This document shows, one piece after another, positions 3,180-62,711 of a stretch of 64,000 bases of DNA. Position 1 is the first letter of the stretch; every line of letters begins with the position of its first letter. Under the pieces are notes generated by a model that saw only the letters and a list, made by a program, of their open reading frames with translations, was not told the DNA's origin and made no database searches. The DNA comes from Thermofilaceae archaeon (lineage in GTDB: Archaea; Thermoproteota; Thermoprotei; Thermofilales; Thermofilaceae): assembly GCA_038861545.1 (NCBI GenBank), contig JAWCCZ010000003.1, positions 160,001-224,000 on the forward strand. Direction: 5' to 3'. A program made the translations under genes and the position numbers.

Positions 3180-3719
3180 ATGAAGGACTTAGAAGCATAT
3201 GGGCCTGGCGACAAAGCCCCTGAGGAAGTAAACATAGTTATCGAGATACCACAGGGCGGTGGCGTTAAGTACGAAATGGATAAGGAAACAGGTGTGCTAA
3301 TCGTTGACAGGATACTGTATACTTCAATGGTTTACCCCTTTAATTACGGTTTCATACCCGGAACTCTTGAAGAGGATAGAGATCCAGTAGATGTTCTACT
3401 GCTAAGTTACGAGCCTTTGCTACCCGGTTCCCTAATTAGGGGTAAACCAGTGGGTGTATTAATTACGAAGGATGAAAAGGGTCCTGACGCTAAAATTGTA
3501 GCTGTTCCCTCACCGAAAATTGATCCGAGGTTCACTGACGTAGACGATGTATCAAAGCTTCCTGAAGCTATAAAAAAGAAGCTTGAACATTTCTTCGAAC
3601 ATTACAAGGAACTTGAACCTGGAAAATGGGTTAAGGTAGAGGGCTGGTACGGGAGAAGCGAGGCGCTTAAAAGAGTTAAACAAGCTATTGAGCGCTATAA
3701 GGCTTTACGTGTCAGTTAA
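3180..3719 (+). CDS. ppa: Inorganic pyrophosphatase (family I)
   Basis: EIPx[13 protein letters not shown], Dx[14 protein letters not shown]. Confidence 0.95.
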
Positions 3720-3770
3720 GCTGAACCGCGCGGTTTATATAGTTTCAAAGTCTATCCAGGATGGTACATT

Positions 3771-29755: not shown

Positions 29756-30157
29756 TTAATACTTGAAGAGCGGCGGCAGTAGCCTAGATTTTCTCCAAGC
29801 CTCTTCGACTTCCTCCAGCCTAGGTTGCTCGACCCCTAACTCCGATGCTCTCCTAGCAACCACGGTCAGCACGTAATCCAGTGGCCTGAGTGCAAGCTCC
29901 AAGGGCGTATGGATACCAGCTTCTATTAACAGCTCCGCTAGCTCAAGGCTAGCGACGCGACACATATCTGCAATTCTCACCAACTTTAGGAGCTCTCCCT
30001 CGCTAACTCCAACACTGCGAGCCAATGTTCTTCTATCTTGAGCAGTTACTGTTAACTCCACTAACTCCCACAAGCTATGTAGCCCGTAAGCTCTTAATGC
30101 TTTTACTATGCGTTGATCAGCGAACTTTAGCCGGTCTATGCCGACTGGATCACTCAC
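29756..30157 (-). CDS. DUF4332-like HhH protein
   Basis: DRRTLARSVGVS..LLKLVRIADMCRV, AELLIEAGI. Confidence 0.7.
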   Translation of the reverse strand: MSDPVGIDRLKFADQRIVKALRAYGLHSLWELVELTVTAQDRRTLARSVGVSEGELLKLVRIADMCRVASLELAELLIEAGIHTPLELALRPLDYVLTVVARRASELGVEQPRLEEVEEAWRKSRLLPPLFKY

Positions 30158-30250: not shown

Positions 30251-30870
30251 GTGTCGCTCAAAGAGGAGTTCCTAAGGCTTTTAAAAGAAAACGAGGAGTT
30301 CAGGCTAGCAGTGGCAGTGTACCTAGACATCAAAGACTTAACACCGGTCCTCGATAGACTAGTACGGGCAGGCCACTCTCTCAGAAAGTCTATCGCTGCG
30401 CAAAGCGGGCAGCTGAAAAGCCAAACAGAGAGCATAAACTTATTCTAAAGCGCTGTAAAGTACCAAGGAGAAAAAGTTGAAACGCTTTAAAAAGCTCTGA
30501 GAACCCATGGTGAAAAACTCGACTCGCCTGAAAGCGCCGTAAAAGGGCTTGTGAAGGCTGTAAAGGTGTTAAGGGAGGCGAGTGCAAAACATGAGGAGCG
30601 GCTTACTAGGATCGAGGGAGATGTCCGCTCGATTAAGTCTAACCTTGACAAATACTTGATAAGCCTTGAAGAAGAGGCGAACGAGGTTATTGGTATCTCC
30701 TCAAGCAGAGAGGTTACCAATTATCCACGGATCCTGCAAGCTTTGACGCCAAGTATGAGTTAGATATCTGCGGAACAGACTGATACTTGACGGTTATCGG
30801 AGAGGCGAAGGTGAGAGCTGGTACGAGAACGATTAAATGGGTCTTTGAGAGAGCGGACATTGGGGGAAAG
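30251..30870 (+). pseudogene. Fragmented archaeal coiled-coil protein (paREP15/DUF3782-like) with PD-(D/E)XK-like tail
   Basis: MSLKEEFLRLLKENEEFRLAVA, heptad segment, ISLEEEANEV, YELDICG and VIGEAKVRAG spread over several frames with stops. Confidence 0.7.
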
Positions 30871-30901
30871 TATTTGTATCCCTCTCCAGCAAGCACTTCC
30901 A

Positions 30902-31198
30902 ATGACGCGGGATCAGGCTATCGGAGCCGGTTTAATGGTCGGATCAATCGCCGGCATCGCCCTCTACGGTTGGCTGCTTACGACCCCGTACAGCTCCTTA
31001 GTCATTCATTTAACTGCCTTCATCGCCGTAGCGGGAGTCCTAGGCATCCTCGCGTGGATCGGCTACACACTAGCTACAACCCCACCTCCTAAACCAATCG
31101 AAGAAATCGAAAAGGAAATCGAAGAAGAGCTCAAAAAACTCGAGGAAGAAGCAAAGAAAGAGGGGGAAAGCAAGGAAGCTGCGGCGAGCACGGGATAG
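30902..31198 (+). CDS. Small two-TM protein with acidic coiled-coil tail; DPM2/PIG-P-like by eye
   Basis: ATG at 30902; MTRDQAIGAGL..Y.W....PY..WIGYTLATTPPPKPIEEIEKEIEEE; the CDS is solid, the homology is inferred. Confidence 0.75.
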   Translation: MTRDQAIGAGLMVGSIAGIALYGWLLTTPYSSLVIHLTAFIAVAGVLGILAWIGYTLATTPPPKPIEEIEKEIEEELKKLEEEAKKEGESKEAAASTG

Positions 31199-31208
31199 CG
31201 GGGGGAAC

Positions 31209-32966
31209 GTGGGTATACGCATCATTTTTCTCTTAACCTTATTCGTATTTTCAACTCTATTGTTAGTATCAATCGCAACAGCGCAAGCGTGGCTTACAGT
31301 AACCACTGAATTTGAAACCTACGAGCAGGGCGACGTAGTGGAAATCACCCTTCAAGGCCCCATTGGAGCAGAAGTCATGCTGGAGGTCAGGGATCCGCTA
31401 GGCGAATTAATAGATAGCAAGTACGTAGTGATATGGCCGGAAAGAACCGTTAATGTGAACTTACCGCTCAGCGAAGAGTGCACTGAAGGTGTTTACACAG
31501 TCACTGCCAGCTTCCTAACGTACACCGTTCAAACAAGGTTCACTGTTCTGCGGAAACCATCTCCCATTCTCGTCCTAGCGCCCCCCGGCAGCGCTCAAAC
31601 CGGTGAAGAGGTGACAGTAATCGGTTTTGTATACCCAGGGTTAAGCTTACCACTCGAAGCTTATATTAAGCTCCCCGGCGGCGAGTGGATCCATTTCGGA
31701 GAGATACAATCTAACGCTAGCGGTTGGCTGACGTTCTCGGTGAAGCCGGACGCGGAGGGTATCTATGAAGTTAAAGTCAGATACAGGGGCTCGCCCGAGC
31801 TCGCGCCCGTCATGACCATAGCTAACTTCACTGTTATGGTTTCCAAACCACCTGGATGCCGGGTGGAACCATTAGGCACCAAGCAGCTCAACGAAACCGC
31901 AAAGCTAGCCTGCAGGGAGTGCGAGGCAATAATTGCTAGAACTATACGCGGGGATCGACTGTACAAGCCGGGGGAAACGGTAAAGCTAGATACCCCCGGT
32001 CCTTGGTTCATTTACCCCCTATGCAACGGTGCGCTGGGAACTCCGGTGCTCACACTGGTTAAGTCGAGCATCAGCATGCACCTTGAAACCCCTGAAGAAG
32101 TCGAGGCCGGTAAACCTTTTACGCTGAAAGTCCGTTTATCACCTCCAACTCCAATGCTGAGAGTAGAGGTTCTCGGAGAAGAAGGTCGAATACTCGCAGC
32201 TGCGAGTACGAGAGTAGATGGAGTATCTATTATGAGGCTCAACCTTACGAGGATAGGCAAGCTCCGTATCCACGCAGAGCTTCAGCCCACAGGCGTGTTC
32301 GAAGCGAGCTTCAGTCAGCCAGTCTTAATCACTGTTCGGGGTAGGGAGATGCATGTATGGATAACTGTAACTGATGCTGAAGGGGAAAAACTGCACGGAG
32401 CAATTATAGCAGTAGACAGCCTAGCAGTTGAAGCCACAGAAGGCGTAGCGTGGGTTCCACTTAAAGCGGGGGAGTACAACCTAACAGTGCTATGGCATGG
32501 CTTCACGGTTTACAAGGGAGAGCAGCTTATTGAGAACTTCAGCATAATAATACCTACATGGTTATACAGCATTAAAGTCAAGGTGATAGACTTCATCGGG
32601 GAGCCGGCTCAACTCGAGCAAGTAGAGCTACTCAATGGAAGCGTTCTCCTAGCAGCGGTGACAACCAACGAAGACGGAGAGGTAGCGTTCACCAGGCTCC
32701 CGCCGGGTACCTACACCGTGCGCGCGAGGGGTATAGCGGTCACGCTTAAACTGCCGGACGAGCGCGAGGCAACACTACAATTACCGCTTCCAGCCTGGTT
32801 TGTAACGGCTGTAGCGTTAACCCTGCTTACAGCGATCTCGCTAATAATCGTAGAGTGGCGCGCATCGGGAGAAAAAACCGGAGTAAAAATCATTAGGGAA
32901 AAGAGCCAGCCGACCAGCGAGCAAGCAGCAACCAAGGGTTTTAAAAGCTCAGCATCCAGCTCATAG
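31209..32966 (+). CDS. Membrane-anchored multi-Ig-like surface protein (paralog 1)
   Basis: Signal peptide, beta-rich repeats, several N-x-S/T sequons, C-terminal TM; paralog of 52569-54201. Confidence 0.8.
   Translation: MGIRIIFLLTLFVFSTLLLVSIATAQAWLTVTTEFETYEQGDVVEITLQGPIGAEVMLEVRDPLGELIDSKYVVIWPERTVNVNLPLSEECTEGVYTVTASFLTYTVQTRFTVLRKPSPILVLAPPGSAQTGEEVTVIGFVYPGLSLPLEAYIKLPGGEWIHFGEIQSNASGWLTFSVKPDAEGIYEVKVRYRGSPELAPVMTIANFTVMVSKPPGCRVEPLGTKQLNETAKLACRECEAIIARTIRGDRLYKPGETVKLDTPGPWFIYPLCNGALGTPVLTLVKSSISMHLETPEEVEAGKPFTLKVRLSPPTPMLRVEVLGEEGRILAAASTRVDGVSIMRLNLTRIGKLRIHAELQPTGVFEASFSQPVLITVRGREMHVWITVTDAEGEKLHGAIIAVDSLAVEATEGVAWVPLKAGEYNLTVLWHGFTVYKGEQLIENFSIIIPTWLYSIKVKVIDFIGEPAQLEQVELLNGSVLLAAVTTNEDGEVAFTRLPPGTYTVRARGIAVTLKLPDEREATLQLPLPAWFVTAVALTLLTAISLIIVEWRASGEKTGVKIIREKSQPTSEQAATKGFKSSASSS
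32939..32946 (+). promoter_or_regulatory. Putative TATA box for 32968 gene
   Basis: TTTTAAAA about 22-29 nt upstream of GTG start. Confidence 0.5.
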
Positions 32967-32967
32967 C

Positions 32968-33399
32968 GTGGAGGAAGAGATAACCGTAGAGGTAACGCTG
33001 ACTTGGAGAGTATTAACGGCGCTGGCGGCACTGGCGGCGGCCGCAGCGATAATTACACAATATCAGCAGCTCAACCTCACTGTTAAAGAGCTTTCGGCAA
33101 GCCTCTCCACCCCTATTTTCAGAGAAACCGCGGCGGAAGTAAGCTTGGATAAGCAATCCTACAAACCCGGTGACCCAGTGAGACTAAGAATATGCCTCTC
33201 AACTAAAATCGAGAAGATCCTCACCGTAACCATCGAAGAACCATCAGGACTTGCACACCTCATCCTCGCCAAACCGGAAGACACGTGTCTCCTAGCTACG
33301 GTAACCCTACCCGGCAATGCTTCACCAGGCGAGTATAAAATCACTGTCAGAGGTGACGGAAAGCTGATCGCGATAAAGATGTTCAAAGTCTCGGAGTAG
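32968..33399 (+). CDS. Small N-anchored Ig-like protein (paralog 1)
   Basis: EEITVEV then TM, DKQSYKPGDPV, PGEYKITV; paralog of 54182-54598. Confidence 0.75.
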   Translation: MEEEITVEVTLTWRVLTALAALAAAAAIITQYQQLNLTVKELSASLSTPIFRETAAEVSLDKQSYKPGDPVRLRICLSTKIEKILTVTIEEPSGLAHLILAKPEDTCLLATVTLPGNASPGEYKITVRGDGKLIAIKMFKVSE

Positions 33400-34013: not shown

Positions 34014-35165
34014 GTGTTGAGTGAGGATACCTTCGTCTCAGTGATCATACCAACGAGAAACGAGCGCGAAAGCATAGCTGAGTGCGTTGAAAAAGCTAGG
34101 AAGACTCTCGAAGAGATGAAACTCACAGGCGAGATAATAGTCTCAGACAACTCCAGCGACGACACACCAGAAATAGCGAGAGGGAAAGGAGCCATAGTTG
34201 TGCATCCCGACAGGCTAGGATACGGCTACGCGTATATTTACGCTCTCCGCCATGCTAAAGGCAAGTACATCGTCATGGCCGATGGTGACTGCACCTACGA
34301 CCTCAGCGAGATGTCTAAACACCTTGAACCCCTCCTTAAAGGAGAAGCCGATGTAGTCCTCGGCACCAGGATCAAAGGTAAAATAATGCCTGGAGCCATG
34401 CACTGGCTGCACAAGTACATCGGCAACCCACTCCTGACTCATATTCTCAACCGGTTCTACGGCACGCGCGTCTCCGACGCCCATACCGGCTTTAGAGCTT
34501 TCACTAGGGAGGCGCTGGAGAAAATCGAGCCGACTGCTGCTGGTATGGAGTTCGCCAGCGAGCTCATCATAAAGGCGGCGTATGCGGGCCTCAGAATCAA
34601 GGAGGTCCCCATAACCTACTACCCCCGAAGAGGTGGAAAGTCGAAGCTCAGAAGCTTTAGGGACGGCTGGCGCCACCTAAAGCTGATGCTAACCTTCGCC
34701 CCCAAGTTCCTCTACTACATCCCCGGCGCAGCTATGATGCTAACCGGGGTGACATTCATGCTAGCAGCTCTCCTCAGGGTCCACCTCGGCTACTCACCAG
34801 GCATCCACTCCTCTATCCTAGGAAGCATGCTCACGATACTCGGCTTCAACTTTGTAACTCTTGGGCTTGTCACTGATATCTATCTCACCAACCTTCTTGG
34901 CAGACCGACCAGCTCAATAACTACCGCCATCCTGAAGCACTTCAGCTCTGAAAAAGCGATGCTTCTCGGGGTGCTCCTCTCACTTGTTGGGCTAGCCTAC
35001 CTGCTCCACATCTTCATCGCCTGGGTGGAAAGCGGATACCGATACATACCATTAAGAGGCGAGAACGTTGTAGCCTCAACACTTTTTATACTAGGCCTCC
35101 AAACTATCGTACAGACCTTCACGCTACATCTCATTTCAGTAGCAGTCAGTGAGCAGCGGCGCTAA
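34014..35165 (+). CDS. GT2 polyprenol-phosphate glycosyltransferase (DPM1-like) with C-terminal TM helices
   Basis: IIPTRNE, SSDDT, DGDCTYD, SDAHTGFRAF, EVPITY, DGWRHL, C-terminal TM segments. Confidence 0.88.
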   Translation: MLSEDTFVSVIIPTRNERESIAECVEKARKTLEEMKLTGEIIVSDNSSDDTPEIARGKGAIVVHPDRLGYGYAYIYALRHAKGKYIVMADGDCTYDLSEMSKHLEPLLKGEADVVLGTRIKGKIMPGAMHWLHKYIGNPLLTHILNRFYGTRVSDAHTGFRAFTREALEKIEPTAAGMEFASELIIKAAYAGLRIKEVPITYYPRRGGKSKLRSFRDGWRHLKLMLTFAPKFLYYIPGAAMMLTGVTFMLAALLRVHLGYSPGIHSSILGSMLTILGFNFVTLGLVTDIYLTNLLGRPTSSITTAILKHFSSEKAMLLGVLLSLVGLAYLLHIFIAWVESGYRYIPLRGENVVASTLFILGLQTIVQTFTLHLISVAVSEQRR

Positions 35166-42148: not shown

Positions 42149-45100
42149 ATGAGTATTCTATTCAGAATCAAACTTAGTATACTTTTAATTTTTCTTTCAT
42201 TGATTACGACAGCTGTTTTCTCATACTTGCTTGCCATACGTATCAAGTATCCCGATACGATGAGGTTCGTCGTAGCTAACACTATTTCATTGATCTCGTT
42301 ATTCTTCTTGCTACACTCGCGTTCTAATTACCATAAACTTAAATTATTAATTAAAAATGTAAAATATATTTCTGTAACATTTTTATTAATGATATTTTTA
42401 TTATTACTATTTAATATAAATAGCTTTATAAATTTATTTTTGTCCCATATCCTTATCCTAATCAGTGGGATATCTATTGTTAATATATTAGGCAAAAAAC
42501 ATTTCAATTTCCTTGTAAAATTGATTATCAGTTATTTTTTAGGGGCTTTGGAATTTGGTCTTTTAGTCTTGATTATATCGACTTTGCTTTATCCTATGAA
42601 TTACTTTTCATCAACCGCTATCTTCAGAATGTTCCTTATTACAGTAGCTATACTGCAAAATCTTCATTTGGTAAGAGTTACTAAAAACGAATTAATTGTA
42701 GAATTTAAACTGGGAATTTCATTGAAAAAGATGATTATGTATGCCGCACTGATTATGACATTATGGTTTTTTGTTATATATTATCCTTTAAAATATTTGA
42801 TTTTAGCTCTTGCTGTAACTGATTTTTCGATTCATTTTAGGATGGCCGTTAATATAATTCGAAATCCTTTGTTACTTATCAAAGTTTATTCTAGTGATTA
42901 TCCACTTTACCATGCATACCTGGGGGCATCTATGATACTATCAAACAATTTTGATTTCGCCCATAATTTTATTATTTCCACAATGTTTCAGCAACTGTTA
43001 CTCGTAGTTGCTGCTACTGTGTATATTCAAGCAGTATTAAGAACTAGCAACTTTAGATCGGTTTTACTGACTCCTTTAGCTTTGCTAATTTTCACTCAAA
43101 TGGGTTGGTCTTACTTAATAGTATATCCTCCTCCAACTCCGGATAGATGGTTTGAGGTGTTAATTCAAGCTAATGAAAAAATATATAGAACCACTATGTA
43201 TTGTCAGCTAACTTATTTCTGGCCGGCTCCCATTGGTCTTGGGATAACCTTATATCTATTATTTTTATCAATGATCATAAAATCTGACAATTATGGAAGA
43301 ATAATAACGGTATTGTTATCGTTTATGTTATCGACAACACATCTCCCCGAGAGTATTTTCCTCTGCATCGTCCTTGCGTCGTCAGTTTTTTTGAACTCGT
43401 CAAGTTTAATAAAAGGTTTTGTATTAGGCTCTTTGATTGGAGTTTCCCTGATGCTTGTTCTCGATATAATCCTACTAAGATCTATTCAAATACAAATAAA
43501 TTGGGTAATTGTATATTTAATTATACTTCTACCATGTATTGCTTTATTACTTAATAAGATAAAATACGTGCGAATTTTCATATCACGCCTGCATTTCAAA
43601 TTTACAAATCTTTTGAATAGTGAGTCAAATCAAGCAATAGTATTTTTCATCTATATATTTTTCTTAGCTGGTTTGCTTGCAGCATTTGATCACTCGACTG
43701 AATTTGCAGTTAGTAAGGCTGATCCGGGAAATGTTGTCGGTTTAGTTCCCTGGTTTGCGTACTCTCTGATCATCGGTCCTGCACTACCCTTAGGTTTGAC
43801 CGAATTATTACTCAATCGTTCTCTTGATGAAAAATCAAGGAATTTAACTTTAATGATAATAATTACGGCTATTTTGATCGGTAAGTCTTCTTCGTATATT
43901 AACCTTAGCATACATTCTGGCTATTGGGGTGAGAAAAGGTTCCTAGTTTTCATCTACTTAGCGCTACTCCCATATTCGATATCGCTGATCGATCGCACTC
44001 TGGAGTACTTATTTAACGGTTTGAATCGCAAAAGAACATTTTTGCTCTATTTACTCATTCCCATTATTTTAGTGTTATCTTTTGGGAATATCCTTAATTA
44101 TTCGGCTTACTGGGAGATTTTCTCGTACAGAACGCTGATGACCGATTCTGAACGAGTCTTAGTGCAGTACATGGCGGATACGTTGTGGCGGGATCCCGCA
44201 AGGTGGGTTCTTCCCTCCAGTTCCAGAATCCGTGCTGTAACTATTCACGCAGCACCTATATATAATACTAACATCCTACTCCCTATTGATAAAATACATC
44301 AACCTGAGTACTTATTCTGGATGCTAAATGCTTATGATCTTGATGCACCCTACTTTGTTACAAGTAAAGGAGGGAGTAACGAGTTGCTAAAAGCCGCTGG
44401 CAAGAAGCTCTTTGAGGTGGGGGATTTCGAGGTCTATGATATACCCCGTTTGTCACCTATTATGAGGAAGAGCGAGAGTGTGCTTCTAAAGCCTTTGCCC
44501 GATGAGGGTACGGTCAGGGATTTCGCCTATACGGCTTTACTTCTCTCCAGGCTTGCTCTCAATTACACGGTTGCGAATATCTTTGATGCATTAGCTGAAA
44601 ATTATTCCACTTGGTTATTGCCTTTCGACACGTGTGATCCGCTAATCCTAGAAGCTCTAAAGGGAGGTGTAGCTATTAATCCTCGTTCAGTGGTCGTGAT
44701 TAACTTAGGACCTCATGCTTGCCTTTACGATATTGTGAAGTCGGACGCTGCTGTGAGAAGTTTTTCAAGAGTTGAACTTGAGGCCTTTGAGGGTTCTATG
44801 AACGGAAAAAGCATAGTTTACATAAAGATTAATAGTTCGATCAATACTATATTGTGGGATAACGCAACTTTAAACGCTCTTCACGCTATGCTCTCGAAGT
44901 ATTTGAGGAGTTTTGTGCAAGCACAGTGGAGTTGGTGGGAAGGAAGCGGTAATGTTGGTGCAACGACTTTAACCGCAAGGGATGCGGTTTTAAGCGCTAG
45001 ATCTATAGTTGTCATGAGTGAAGAGACGCCGCTGTGCATTGGCGATGCATGCTTTTCAGATGCCAGGTTCGTTCAGATTCTACAGTTAGGCGATACCCCT

Positions 45101-45610
45101 CTCCTCAAAGTTGACTACATCGCGATAACGAGGGGTTACGGCTACTACGTGGAGGCGAAGTGTGCGAACGCCACTTTACTGCCGCAGAGCATGATCCTTA
45201 TTTATTCAAAGGAAGGGGTTTTGCATGCTCTTAGGTTAGATAAGCCCCTATCGCTTGCAAGGAATCTAACTCTGCTAGCGAGGGACCTCTCAATTACCTC
45301 GGCTGAAGCGGTCCTCAATACCTACTCTCAAAGGCTTGCAGGACCGTTTTTACCCGGAGAGATGCTTATGAAAGGAGGCACTATAAACATCAAGTACTTA
45401 CAAGGTAGTAGTAACTTTCATGTTCTAAATGTTTCAATTACTGGTTCAAGGGTTATTCTCTCCTCAGTTTCCAATGTATATGATGACTTTACTGCTATAA
45501 CAAAAACATTTAAATATATATTACTCATAGTGATATTTTCAACAATTTATTATTTTTATCTTCTCTATCGATTGCGCAAGGAAAAGCTCTCCAAATCGGG
45601 AGATGGTTAA
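42149..45610 (+). CDS. Large polytopic membrane protein, putative GT-C fold, with C-terminal extracellular domain and TM
   Basis: Many TM segments; loop motifs TDFSIH, DYPLYH, EKRF; about 450-aa soluble region; terminal TM. Confidence 0.6.
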   Translation: MSILFRIKLSILLIFLSLITTAVFSYLLAIRIKYPDTMRFVVANTISLISLFFLLHSRSNYHKLKLLIKNVKYISVTFLLMIFLLLLFNINSFINLFLSHILILISGISIVNILGKKHFNFLVKLIISYFLGALEFGLLVLIISTLLYPMNYFSSTAIFRMFLITVAILQNLHLVRVTKNELIVEFKLGISLKKMIMYAALIMTLWFFVIYYPLKYLILALAVTDFSIHFRMAVNIIRNPLLLIKVYSSDYPLYHAYLGASMILSNNFDFAHNFIISTMFQQLLLVVAATVYIQAVLRTSNFRSVLLTPLALLIFTQMGWSYLIVYPPPTPDRWFEVLIQANEKIYRTTMYCQLTYFWPAPIGLGITLYLLFLSMIIKSDNYGRIITVLLSFMLSTTHLPESIFLCIVLASSVFLNSSSLIKGFVLGSLIGVSLMLVLDIILLRSIQIQINWVIVYLIILLPCIALLLNKIKYVRIFISRLHFKFTNLLNSESNQAIVFFIYIFFLAGLLAAFDHSTEFAVSKADPGNVVGLVPWFAYSLIIGPALPLGLTELLLNRSLDEKSRNLTLMIIITAILIGKSSSYINLSIHSGYWGEKRFLVFIYLALLPYSISLIDRTLEYLFNGLNRKRTFLLYLLIPIILVLSFGNILNYSAYWEIFSYRTLMTDSERVLVQYMADTLWRDPARWVLPSSSRIRAVTIHAAPIYNTNILLPIDKIHQPEYLFWMLNAYDLDAPYFVTSKGGSNELLKAAGKKLFEVGDFEVYDIPRLSPIMRKSESVLLKPLPDEGTVRDFAYTALLLSRLALNYTVANIFDALAENYSTWLLPFDTCDPLILEALKGGVAINPRSVVVINLGPHACLYDIVKSDAAVRSFSRVELEAFEGSMNGKSIVYIKINSSINTILWDNATLNALHAMLSKYLRSFVQAQWSWWEGSGNVGATTLTARDAVLSARSIVVMSEETPLCIGDACFSDARFVQILQLGDTPLLKVDYIAITRGYGYYVEAKCANATLLPQSMILIYSKEGVLHALRLDKPLSLARNLTLLARDLSITSAEAVLNTYSQRLAGPFLPGEMLMKGGTINIKYLQGSSNFHVLNVSITGSRVILSSVSNVYDDFTAITKTFKYILLIVIFSTIYYFYLLYRLRKEKLSKSGDG

Positions 45611-52100: not shown

Positions 52101-52350
52101 TTGGGCTTGAAGAAGAAGTTTCCAAAGCTTTTGAGGGGTAAGGAGGAATCCCGGTATACGATAGCTGGTTTACTCGGCTTTGAGGGGACTCTGAAGAAAA
52201 CGAATCGGCGGGAGAGACAGATCGCTGGGGTCTGCAAGGAAGTGTTCGAGGTTTTCGAAAGGCTTGATGAAGCTCTAGCTAGATTAGCAGAGGCAGTAGC
52301 TAGGTATGAGGAAACCCTTCGGAGGCTCAAAAGATACTTCGCTATGTACG
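52101..52350 (+). pseudogene. Second degenerate paREP15/DUF3782-like coiled-coil N-terminus
   Basis: MGLKKKFPKLLRGKEESRYTIAGLLG resembles 30251 N-terminus; heptad remnant LDEALARLAEAVARYEETLRRL; TTTAAATA upstream. Confidence 0.55.
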
Positions 52351-52568
52351 AGGGAGTAGCCTTCACAGATTCTTTCGATTCCGTAGCCAGGAGAGATTCA
52401 AGCTACTGTGGTTTCAGCACAGTCGACGTTCTAGCATGGTCTAAATGTAGCCGGGGCTCAACTTTTTTGCTTAAACTGGTTGGAAAGAGGCCAAGGAAAT
52501 CTAGGAGGACCAAAAATGAGGGTTATAAGAGCATAGGAAATCTAAGGTTAGAGCAAATAAATAAAATA

Positions 52569-54201
52569 ATGTTACTCTTCTCTATTCCTATAGCAATTAT
52601 AGTAGTACCACCAACTTTCACGCAGCCCGAACTCGTTATTACTCTAGACCGTGGCATATACGAGTTAGGCAACACAGTCACCGCGACCATAATTGGGCCG
52701 CCTAATGCTGAGCTTCAACTAGAGCTCAGAGGTCCAGGAGGTGTATTAGTCGCTTTCAGGCCGGTAACGCTCAACTCTGAAGGCAGAGCTGTTTTAACGT
52801 TCACTCTAGGTCTCAAGTGGCTCACTGGCACATACATGATCCATGTGTTCGATACAAGAGCCATGGCCAGCGCTACTTTCGAGGTTGTCGAAAGAGTGGC
52901 TCCCTTAATTCTCTTAGCACCACCAGGTCAAGTAAAGGCTGGGAGGTCGACAGAGGTCCTATGCTTCATCTATCCTGGATTGGAGACTGAGGTTTCCGTG
53001 TATATTAGACCATTGGGAGATAAATGGAGGCTGCTGGGCTTGTACACGTCAAACGAGACTGGCTGGCTTGTCGTGTCTCTCCCTCAGCTAAATGAGGGTG
53101 TCTACGAGATTAGAGTTATGACTCATGAGACTTCCGAGTGCGATTCAGCATCAGCAACTACGCAGTTCAGCGTAACTGGCATTCAATCCCAGTGGAGGGT
53201 TGAAGCTCCACCAGTGGAGCAGCTTGGAGAAGCAATCTTCTTAGTATGCCAGGGCTGCGACGCTGTTGTAGCTAGGACTGCGATTGGCGATAGGCTATAC
53301 CCGTGCGGCGCGCGGGTGATATTGGACGTGCCTGGACCTTGGTTTCTCTACCCGGCGAGCGGAGGAGCATTGGGTACACCAACGATCATGCTAGTAAAGG
53401 CCAGACTGAACGTGACGTTAATGGGACCGAGTGAAGTCAGCATCAATGAAAGCTTTCCGCTTTGGGCAGTACTTGACCCTCCAGCGCCAGCCGTTAAGAT
53501 AAATTTTGTGGACTCCCGTGGCACAGTGATAGCAGAAACGCGATCTCGGAAGGACGGAATAGCGCTAGCAGTTCTCCGGTTCAACAGTCTCGGCGAAGAG
53601 AAGGTTAGAGCCATTCCAGAGCCTACTAGCATCTTTGAAGTGGACGAGTCGAAACCGCTAAGCATCAGAGTTCTACGCGAGTGGGTTAGTGTACGCCTTA
53701 AGGTACTCGACGCGAAGGAGAGACTATTGCCTGGCTCTGTCGTGGAGGTAGCAGATGCTAGTTATAAAGCCTGGAACGGCACGGCTTTAGTAAGAGCGAG
53801 GGCAGGTTTCTACGACGTGAGGGTTTTCTGGCGTGGAGTAGTAGTGTTCAGCAATAGGCTGATGCTGGGGGAAGGTGATCTAGTAATCAATACGCAAGTG
53901 TATGACCTTGAGGTGAGCGTAAATAGCTTCCTTGGAATCCCGGTCGCCGGCGAGCTAGTAGAGTTATTCAACGGTACTCAGCGAGTAGCAGCTGGTGTTA
54001 CCGATAAAGGTGGACGGTTAACTCTATATAGGGTGCCCGCTGGAGCATTTCACAGTGCTGCCTTCCTCAATAGCTCCGCTAACGGTCTCCGTTGCTGTTA
54101 CAGCGCTCACTGCTCTTTGTGCCCGTCGTTACATTCGGGTAAAGGTGCTGAAGCTGGAGGGCGGAGTAGATCGAGACTCTGTTAATCCTCTACCACCCTG
54201 A
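52569..54201 (+). pseudogene. Multi-Ig-like surface protein (paralog 2), +1 frameshift before C-terminal anchor
   Basis: Aligns with 31209-32966 (LAPPG, FIYPGL, SNETGW, CxxC, PGPWF, ALGTP); hydrophobic tail lies in +1 frame after about 54049; start uncertain. Confidence 0.7.
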
Positions 54202-61961: not shown

Positions 61962-62711
61962 CTAGCCCAGAAGGAATCCCTTATACATTTCAATGTACTG
62001 TTGAAGTAATTCGGGGAGCTCCTTAAATCGGTGCTTTTCTAGCAGGAACCACAGAATATTACGGAGGTGTAACTGAGCTCTAAGAAGAAAGCGTATGTCG
62101 TGATTGCGCCGCATATCGGCTCCCCATCTCCTAAATGCGTCAAATTTTTCAGACCTGTCATGGTAGGCCAAATACGCGAGTAGGGGCACCACATAGTAAC
62201 CCTTTTCCCTAACGAAACATGCATAGACTTTATCTTCTCCCACGTGAGTGCTGAGGAGTTGCCTACATTGGAGCAGTAGATCTCTGGGTACAATAGTATT
62301 GCTAAACGCAGCGAAGCTGAATCTTTTATTTCTCCACTCATCGTATGCGCTATACCGTGGGCCGTCTAATGCTGCCATCACCATACCGATAGTTTTTACT
62401 GCGAACCTTTTCATTATATTCCACCAATTGGGATATAGGTAGACGTCGCTGTCCACGTACACAATCCACTCTGTTTCGGCAAGCTCAGCTAATTTGTAGC
62501 GAATCCTCCCGATCATGTTGTCTCTGCCTGTAAAGAGGTATGTTTCCGCTCCATGCTTTTCTGCAATTTTAAGCGTAGAATCTGTGCTCCCTCCATCGCC
62601 TACAAGAATTCTGTTTATTGGCAGTGCATGCTTGATGCAATGCAGGCAGCGATTCAGCGTCCTGGCACTATTGTACGTAACTATTAGTACATCAACTTTA
62701 GAGGCCGCCAT
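61962..62711 (-). CDS. GT2 glycosyltransferase (soluble, no TM)
   Basis: IVTYNS, DGGSTDST, VDSDV, GED. Confidence 0.85.
   Translation of the reverse strand: MAASKVDVLIVTYNSARTLNRCLHCIKHALPINRILVGDGGSTDSTLKIAEKHGAETYLFTGRDNMIGRIRYKLAELAETEWIVYVDSDVYLYPNWWNIMKRFAVKTIGMVMAALDGPRYSAYDEWRNKRFSFAAFSNTIVPRDLLLQCRQLLSTHVGEDKVYACFVREKGYYVVPLLAYLAYHDRSEKFDAFRRWGADMRRNHDIRFLLRAQLHLRNILWFLLEKHRFKELPELLQQYIEMYKGFLLG

Follow-up and report, generated by a model that had tools for sequence, protein, structure and literature searches.

The window analyzed here is the whole of a 64,000-nt stretch of a Thermofilaceae archaeon genome (GCA_038861545.1, contig JAWCCZ010000003.1, positions 160,001 to 224,000 of the forward strand), and positions given without further label refer to it. 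The subject is a small open reading frame (ORF) at positions 30902-31198, the 98-aa product of which is designated P0001; its host genome is designated G000. An original prediction had presented P0001 as a candidate archaeal homolog of the eukaryotic protein DPM2 with features of PIG-P and DPM3. At the level of the protein family to which P0001 belongs this idea proved largely right, though it had been reached through a pairwise resemblance that is not significant alone.

DPM2 is the regulatory subunit of eukaryotic dolichol-phosphate mannose (Dol-P-Man) synthase and is also a component of the glycosylphosphatidylinositol (GPI)-GlcNAc transferase, of which PIG-P is an essential subunit. DPM3 is the membrane tether of DPM1 and binds this catalytic subunit through a C-terminal helical segment. 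DPM2 and PIG-P are small subunits of the endoplasmic reticulum (ER), the exact roles of which are still unclear.

The P0001 ORF extends from an ATG at 30902 to a stop codon at 31196-31198. This ATG, rather than the upstream TTG at 30845, was taken as the start because homologs begin at the same M-x-[RK]-D-Q. An AlphaFold2 (AF2) model based on a 20-row alignment comprised helices at residues 3-26, 31-59, and 66-96, with a four-residue hairpin turn and a mean predicted local distance difference test score (pLDDT) of 85.5, and so bore out the predicted architecture of two transmembrane (TM) helices and a helical tail. The features of the gene and its product are as follows.

30902..31198, + strand: hairpin gene encoding P0001 (ORF and translation; 98 aa)
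30908..30979, + strand: TM helix 1 (TM1), residues 3-26, with N-terminal R-D-Q-x-I-G and conserved Y22 (AF2, pLDDT >90)
30992..31078, + strand: TM helix 2 (TM2), residues 31-59, ending in the family signature A-W-I-G-Y-T-L-A-T (AF2)
31076..31096, + strand: T-T-P-P-P-K-P hinge, residues 59-65, at the membrane boundary (invariant in the close family)
31097..31189, + strand: acidic amphipathic helix, I-E-E-I-E-K-E-I-E-E-E-L-K-K-L-E-E-E..., residues 66-96, predicted cytoplasmic (AF2, pLDDT 57-80)

Both ends of P0001 are predicted to be cytoplasmic. For the C-terminal tail such a location, as in PIG-P (PMC2912341), is argued from C-terminal fusions of the hairpin to helix-hairpin-helix (HhH), DUF4332, and MarR domains. 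An A/T-rich box, AAGTATTTGTAT, is present at 30868-30880, ∼25-30 nt upstream of the hairpin-gene ATG, and would fit the TATA box of a leaderless transcript.

A search of P0001 against Pfam and NCBIfam returned no family and no DNA-binding domain. Foldseek comparison of the AF2 model with the PDB gave nothing at E ≤ 10, and a search of the ESM Atlas recovered nothing beyond clusters of the family itself and, by structure, DUF6110 and Holin-X. Family profiles compared with PDB sequences gave chance TM matches only, the searched PDB set containing no DPM2 structure.

A hairpin family and its relation to DPM2, PIG-P, and DPM3

A word-indexed search with P0001 returned 2180 homologs at E ≤ 0.01, chiefly from Thermofilaceae, Desulfurococcales, and Pyrobaculum and its relatives, and an exhaustive profile search yielded 517 family clusters at 50% identity, with lengths of 54-160 aa among the 150 of these that were listed. 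In a survey of 201 sampled Thermoproteota genomes, 174 of them of high quality, the family was present in 185 genomes (163 of the high-quality ones), each with one to four copies. One taxonomic family was mostly without the hairpin gene (1 of 7 genomes positive), and the single positive genome was also the only one in that taxon with an AglJ-like gene.

In the close family, TM2, the hinge, and residues 66-81 (I-E-E-I-E-K-E-I-E-E-E-L-K-K-L-E) are invariant, and the hinge is widely retained beyond it as TTPPP[KEQ]P. Across a sample of 118 diverse family proteins, which was also used for Pfam matching, W52 and G54 are invariant and G8, Y22, and I53 nearly so; D4 likewise belongs, with G8 and Y22, to the positions that are invariant or nearly so.

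Homologs of P0001 are mostly named “transcriptional regulator”, and this name or “HTH DNA binding domain” is carried in NCBI, JGI, and UniRef even though a domain of this kind is lacking in typical members. The label is not borne out for P0001, in which Pfam and NCBIfam detected no DNA-binding domain and the model of which consists of two TM helices and one further helix. The name probably spread from rare fused forms, in which the hairpin is joined to MarR (P0073), to HhH (P0256), or to HHH_5 and DUF4332 domains (P0401-P0407, carrying PF14520 and PF14229, three of them also with a precomputed PF08510 annotation). Only 10 family proteins longer than 200 aa were found, and the search for longer forms gave MFS, DUF4332, and run-on forms only, with no GT2-hairpin fusion (GT2, glycosyltransferase family 2).

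The relation to known families was assessed with the Pfam models for PIG-P (PF08510, cut-off 39.3 bits), DPM2 (PF07297, 27.3 bits), DPM3 (PF08285, 25 bits), and Phage_holin_3_6 (PF07332, 28.4 bits). Among the 118 diverse members, 21 matched PIG-P (best E value 7.6e-8), 13 matched DPM2 (best 4.3e-7), and 5 matched DPM3 (best 0.002). Members with a long interhelical loop reached 41.2 and 40.1 bits with PIG-P, above the cut-off, and 20-27 bits with DPM2; in 8 of 8 such members PIG-P outranked every other Pfam family. When the PIG-P model was applied to the 201 genomes in six frames, 34 matches were obtained at E ≤ 0.001, two of which reached the cut-off. Assignment by coordinates against family positions, or by sequence, placed all 34 in family genes. 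These matches cover positions 8-97 of the 121 in the model and reach the tail beyond TM2. In the same genomes, 17 matches at E ≤ 0.01 were obtained with the DPM2 model, of which 13 spanned its full length (positions 1-2 to 71); one exceeded the cut-off, with relatives scoring 20-27.6 bits, and all 13 full-length matches, together with one partial match on a diverged paralog, were family genes. Neither model gave a match in a control set of 14 genomes. The Pfam-matched members connect to P0001 through the family hidden Markov model (HMM) at 1e-18 to 1e-23.

Profile-profile comparison with hhalign aligned the family collinearly with mammalian DPM2 across both helices, with a score of 28.5 (P = 1.5e-4). 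Reversed profiles scored 12-15, and 200 block shuffles preserving TM composition gave a mean of 16.4 (standard deviation 3.2, maximum 27.1), none reaching 28.5. In the alignment, D4, G8, and Y22 of the family correspond to D6, G10, and Y24 of DPM2, and the end of TM2 corresponds to the F-I-S-Y-V-M of DPM2; the motifs in common are D-Q-x-x-G, Y, a loop proline, R-x-[YW]-x-x-A-x-P, and [WF]-I-x-[YW]-x-M. Given the specificity of the PIG-P and DPM2 models and the outcome of the shuffle test, the similarity is family-specific and is not generic hydrophobicity. It is likely that the family and DPM2/PIG-P share common ancestry rather than resembling one another by convergence, and the family would then be an ancient archaeal one and constitute the Thermoproteota branch of the DPM2/PIG-P superfamily.

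The predicted profile relation beyond the TM background was thus found for the family and not for P0001 taken alone. The stretches of DPM2 that had been used in making the prediction were correct, the typed 79-residue version being 99% identical to orang-utan DPM2 (P0272). A resemblance to DPM3, which had also been proposed, is unsupported: P0001 has no match, and the five matching members are those given above. DPM2 and PIGP have been described as products of a duplication of archaeal origin that predates the last eukaryotic common ancestor (PMC12872463, Nature 2025), and in the PF07297 tree in the supplement of that study Asgard sequences are sister to eukaryotic DPM2+PIGP; the Asgard link made here is taken from that tree. 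For Asgard archaea, kinship with DPM2/PIG-P has already been published, and the premise that such subunits are usually regarded as eukaryotic is outdated.

Gene neighborhoods

The proposed position of the hairpin gene, 2.8 kb upstream of a DPM1-type GT2 at a glycosylation island, was confirmed by the following gene and those beyond it.

34014..35165, + strand: AglJ/Dol-P-Man synthase (DPMS)-like GT2, 383 aa, about four C-terminal TM helices (PF00535, 6.7e-29; hydropathy)

This protein scored 179.8 bits with the AglJ model TIGR04182, below the cut-off of 325, and 106 bits with the Dol-P-hexose transferase model NF041391. Its best solved relative is the Pyrococcus furiosus Dol-P-Man synthase (5mlz, 3e-15), and it is the only TIGR04182 match in the host genome. 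It begins 2.8 kb downstream of the hairpin gene and opens an island that includes 2 GT2, 4 glycosyltransferase family 4 (GT4), UDP-GlcNAc 2-epimerase, and RmlA/RmlD-like genes. A GT2 without TM helices at 61962-62711, which had also been put forward as a possible partner, is SunS-like or generic, not DPM1-like.

Linkage to glycosyltransferases, which had been predicted, was borne out across the phylum by a comparison of 40 family loci with 76 matched random loci from the same genomes. A GT2, GT4, or Wzx gene was present within 7 kb in 13 of the 40 family loci and 5 of the 76 control loci (p = 4.5e-4). The linkage was clearest for AglJ/DPMS-like GT2 genes (5/40 versus 1/76; p = 0.018), the products of which are typically about 300 aa long with two C-terminal TM helices; Wzx flippase genes neighbored the family gene at 5 of 40 loci and at none of the 76 controls. 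AglJ-like GT2 genes were also censused throughout the phylum as TIGR04182-like genes at E ≤ 1e-30. Cross-matching of their positions with those of the family showed that at least 15 of 102 genomes, representing 10 taxonomic families, have the two types of gene ≤7.7 kb apart, where about 2 would be expected by chance (our estimate, assuming 1.4 × 1.5 copies and a 15.4-kb span in 1.7 Mb). Of the pairs, six lie within 0.7 kb, in three arrangements: hairpin then GT2, GT2 then hairpin, and divergent genes. In one genome of the same class (G139), the hairpin gene is followed by an AglJ-like GT2 with an ATGA stop/start overlap (L044:7255-7258), which implies translational coupling of the two. A complex prediction for this overlapping pair, run without controls, gave a score of 0.00 and speaks for neither side.

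A second family member of the host genome, outside the window, was found through weak DPM2 and DPM3 matches (the latter at 0.009). It and its neighbor are as follows.

G000:C4:229769-230065 (L171:1770-2066), + strand: diverged 98-aa hairpin paralog (family HMM, 2.1e-12)
L171:944-1747, - strand: cis-prenyltransferase UppS gene (PF01255, 1.4e-76), head-to-head with the paralog

The paralog was matched at the same E value when the family HMM was run against all ORFs of the host genome, and the hhalign probability was 97%. As in DPM2, its loop is long and its tail short and basic. Its score with the mammalian DPM2 profile was 25.1 over 75 columns; 511 natural TM hairpins of the host genome, scored as background against this profile, had a mean of 11.7 (standard deviation 2.3) and a maximum of 19.6. 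The paralog is more DPM2-like than P0001. The head-to-head pair with UppS is kept in 17 of 20 loci from six taxonomic families of the class, and two of the other three loci are cut by contig ends. No UppS gene was found near P0001-type genes among the loci examined. The pairing of paralog and UppS is a second and independent connection between dolichol metabolism and the superfamily.

In one genus, two family paralogs are arranged convergently ∼0.5 kb apart (L173:2738-3016, + strand, and 3454-3720, - strand), and the same is seen in L057 and L058. One copy of the pair is typical (E about 1e-39) and the other diverged (E about 1e-15). The distance from the pair to an AglJ-like GT2 is 0.7 kb in L173 (G071) and about 6 kb in L058 (G087).

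The other features of the window that bear on the hairpin gene or lie in its surroundings are given below.

29756..30157, - strand: DUF4332 (helix-hairpin-helix-type) protein, divergent upstream neighbor (PF14229, 7.6e-11)
31209..32966, + strand: 585-aa Ig-like membrane-anchored surface protein (CarboxypepD_reg, 2.9e-13; Big_3_5, 2e-11)
32968-33399, + strand: 143-aa MG2-domain protein, after the Ig-like gene
42149-45610, + strand: ORF of 1153 aa within the glycosylation island (Pfam, nothing at E ≤ 0.001)
52101-54185, + strand: 694-aa MG2-domain ORF

The Ig-like gene begins 10 nt past the hairpin-gene stop codon, and the two may be co-transcribed. Four other loci (cluster c5) likewise have MG2/Ig-like genes adjoining the family gene. 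A DUF4332 gene was found near the family gene in 0 of 40 other loci and 0 of 76 controls, and hence shows no enrichment.

Proposed function and alternative explanations

On balance we lean towards the reading that P0001 is a hairpin protein of the DPM2/PIG-P superfamily that associates with GT2 enzymes of the Dol-P-hexose synthase type, and possibly with other enzymes of the dolichol pathway, and thereby stabilizes or activates them. Here, the hairpin would pack in the membrane against the TM helices of an AglJ/DPMS-type polyprenol-phosphate (dolichol-phosphate) hexose synthase and would stabilize or activate the synthase as DPM2 does for Dol-P-Man synthase. A two-TM synthase of ∼300 aa together with the hairpin would present four TM helices, the count of the single-chain P. 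furiosus type-III synthase. The acidic amphipathic helix would lie at the inner face of the membrane, where it might make contact with the catalytic domain or with a different partner in the cytoplasm. We infer the physical binding and the effect on the enzyme. Of the original proposal of an accessory subunit for an archaeal Dol-P-sugar synthase, the kinship of the family and the linkage to glycosyltransferases stood; the DPM3 component did not, and P0001 itself falls short of the Pfam thresholds.

The closest comparison is with DPM2 (PF07297), a protein of 84-100 aa made of one two-TM hairpin, to which P0001 corresponds at 98 aa. In common with DPM2, the family has D-Q-x-x-G at its N terminus, an S in mid-helix, a Y towards the end of TM1, and [WF]-I-[GST]-[YW]-x-[ML] where TM2 ends; in long-loop relatives a proline in the loop is shared as well, and TM2 opens with R-x-[YW]-x-x-A-x-P. 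The gene context includes a Dol-P-hexose synthase. Unlike DPM2, P0001 has a loop about 14 residues shorter and scores below the Pfam cut-off, and its candidate partner GT2 has TM helices of its own, which human DPM1 does not. PIG-P (PF08510) shares the order of two TM helices followed by a hydrophilic tail, the location of which in P0001 is deduced from domain fusions, and is the top Pfam family for the long-loop members, two of them above the cut-off. However, P0001 itself is unmatched, the tail sequence is unrelated, and no GPI pathway or PIG-A partner was identified. With DPM3 (PF08285) the two TM helices and C-terminal helical cytoplasmic segment offer a functional analogy for the acidic tail, although sequence support is weak (none for P0001, 5 of 118 members, and 0.009 for the paralog). 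In P. furiosus DPMS (PDB 5mlz) the four TM helices form two hairpins that were likened topologically by its authors to DPM3/DPM2 (PMC5526996); a two-TM AglJ-like GT2 plus the hairpin has an equal TM count, but the second hairpin here is a separate gene. An hhalign comparison of the family with the C-terminal hairpin of the GT2 itself was marginal (score 24.8, P = 1e-3, probability 20%).

A number of observations weigh against the proposed role. P0001 has no DPM2, PIG-P, or DPM3 Pfam match at E ≤ 1, the locus has none in six frames at E ≤ 10, and no member of the class of P0001 matches any of the three models, so that the link to them is transitive. The hairpin of P0001 scored 19.0 with the mammalian DPM2 profile, rank 3 among the 511 natural hairpins, and its pairwise likeness to DPM2 is accordingly not above chance. 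Even for the family, the hhalign probability with DPM2 is only 51%. The tail also differs, DPM2 having a short basic one where P0001 has an acidic helix of 35 residues preceded by the invariant TTPPPKP hinge. With respect to gene context, no universally conserved neighbor of the family gene was found, and three genes separate that of P0001 from the GT2 at 34014-35165. As this GT2, the sole AglJ-like one of the host, already has about four TM helices by hydropathy, it may not need a helper hairpin. Moreover, an AglJ-like GT2 was not found at E ≤ 1e-30 in 86 of the 185 family-positive genomes and therefore cannot be the sole partner. Two further points of this kind, weak Holin-X matches and the fusions to HhH and winged helix-turn-helix domains that hint at another role, bear on an alternative considered next.

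The likeness to DPM2/PIG-P could reflect convergence of short TM hairpins, with the protein tethering or regulating cytoplasmic proteins of a nucleic-acid-binding type through its acidic tail and having no part in glycosylation. The natural fusions to MarR (P0073), HhH (P0256), and HHH_5+DUF4332 (P0401-P0407) fit such a role, as does the DUF4332 gene divergently upstream in the window; yet the fused forms are rare (the 10 proteins >200 aa), and the DUF4332 gene is near the family gene in none of the 40 other loci. Spurious, TM-driven matches to the PIG-P model are documented (PMC2912341), P0001 on its own does not reach significance against DPM2, and 80 of 118 members weakly match Phage_holin_3_6 (Holin-X, PF07332), an unrelated-looking two-TM family that shares the hairpin with a short loop, at up to 35.5 bits. 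Set against this, PIG-P matches fell on the family in 34 of 34 cases with none in controls, the profile score exceeded 200 of 200 composition-preserving shuffles, and PIG-P scores were higher than those for Holin-X in 8 of 8 long-loop members. P0001 itself gave 13.2 bits with Holin-X, against a cut-off of 28.4, and its neighbors are genes for cellular glycosylation and surface proteins, with no phage or lysis context. A tether without a glycosylation role, which we consider unlikely, would also sit poorly with the strong recurrence of AglJ-like GT2 genes beside the family gene and of UppS beside the paralog.

A true relative of DPM2/PIG-P might instead act on the lipid carrier: it would bind Dol-P and transfer it among cis-prenyltransferase, Dol-P-sugar synthases, and flippases, or would aid Dol-P-sugars in crossing the membrane. 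The family is wider than any single glycosyltransferase partner (185 versus 102 of 201 genomes), and its neighbors include Wzx, several glycosyltransferase classes, and UppS for the paralog. The TM domain of type-III DPMS has also been discussed in connection with the flipping of Dol-P-Man (PMC12992685). However, it is to AglJ-like GT2 that the family is most tightly linked, the ATGA overlap included, and a two-helix hairpin is small for a scramblase unless oligomeric. We regard action on the carrier as somewhat less probable still than a tethering role. Finally, the 10-nt gap to the 585-aa Ig-like gene and the adjoining MG2/Ig-like genes of the four other loci would be explained if P0001 were a membrane partner of the downstream surface protein, serving for example in its anchoring or export, and lay near glycosylation genes only because surface glycoprotein genes do. 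This is very improbable, given that Ig-like neighbors occur in only 5 of 41 loci, from three taxonomic families, whereas the hairpin is near-universal, and that the PIG-P/DPM2 similarity and the adjacency to AglJ and UppS would be left unexplained.

Implications for the dolichol pathway

The preferred reading, of a superfamily hairpin that assists Dol-P-hexose synthases, admits a bolder extension, which we offer tentatively and with some doubt. Thermoproteota might make a multi-subunit Dol-P-hexose synthase, in which a two-TM AglJ-like GT2 and the hairpin rebuild the type-III four-helix domain in trans, and the paralog might be the membrane partner of the cis-prenyltransferase. The helper-subunit design seen in DPM1-DPM2-DPM3, in the GPI-GlcNAc transferase, and perhaps, by analogy, in DHDDS-NgBR would then predate eukaryotes and even the Asgard lineage.

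A survey in 2008 found no archaeal accessory subunits (PMC2446393), and the Asgard relatives are given only in a supplementary table of the 2025 study (PMC12872463). What is new here is that the DPM2/PIG-P superfamily appears near-universal in Thermoproteota, hidden under the name “transcriptional regulator”, so that a widespread misannotation is corrected; that a Thermoproteota subfamily has a hinge and tail of its own; and that synteny provides candidate partners, an AglJ/DPMS-like GT2, with an overlapping gene, for one paralog and the cis-prenyltransferase of the dolichol chain for the other. The function of such hairpins becomes testable in simple archaeal systems and through co-expression. 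If a four-helix synthase is indeed assembled in trans, the design of the eukaryotic ER helper subunits would be older than eukaryotes and the Asgard lineage.

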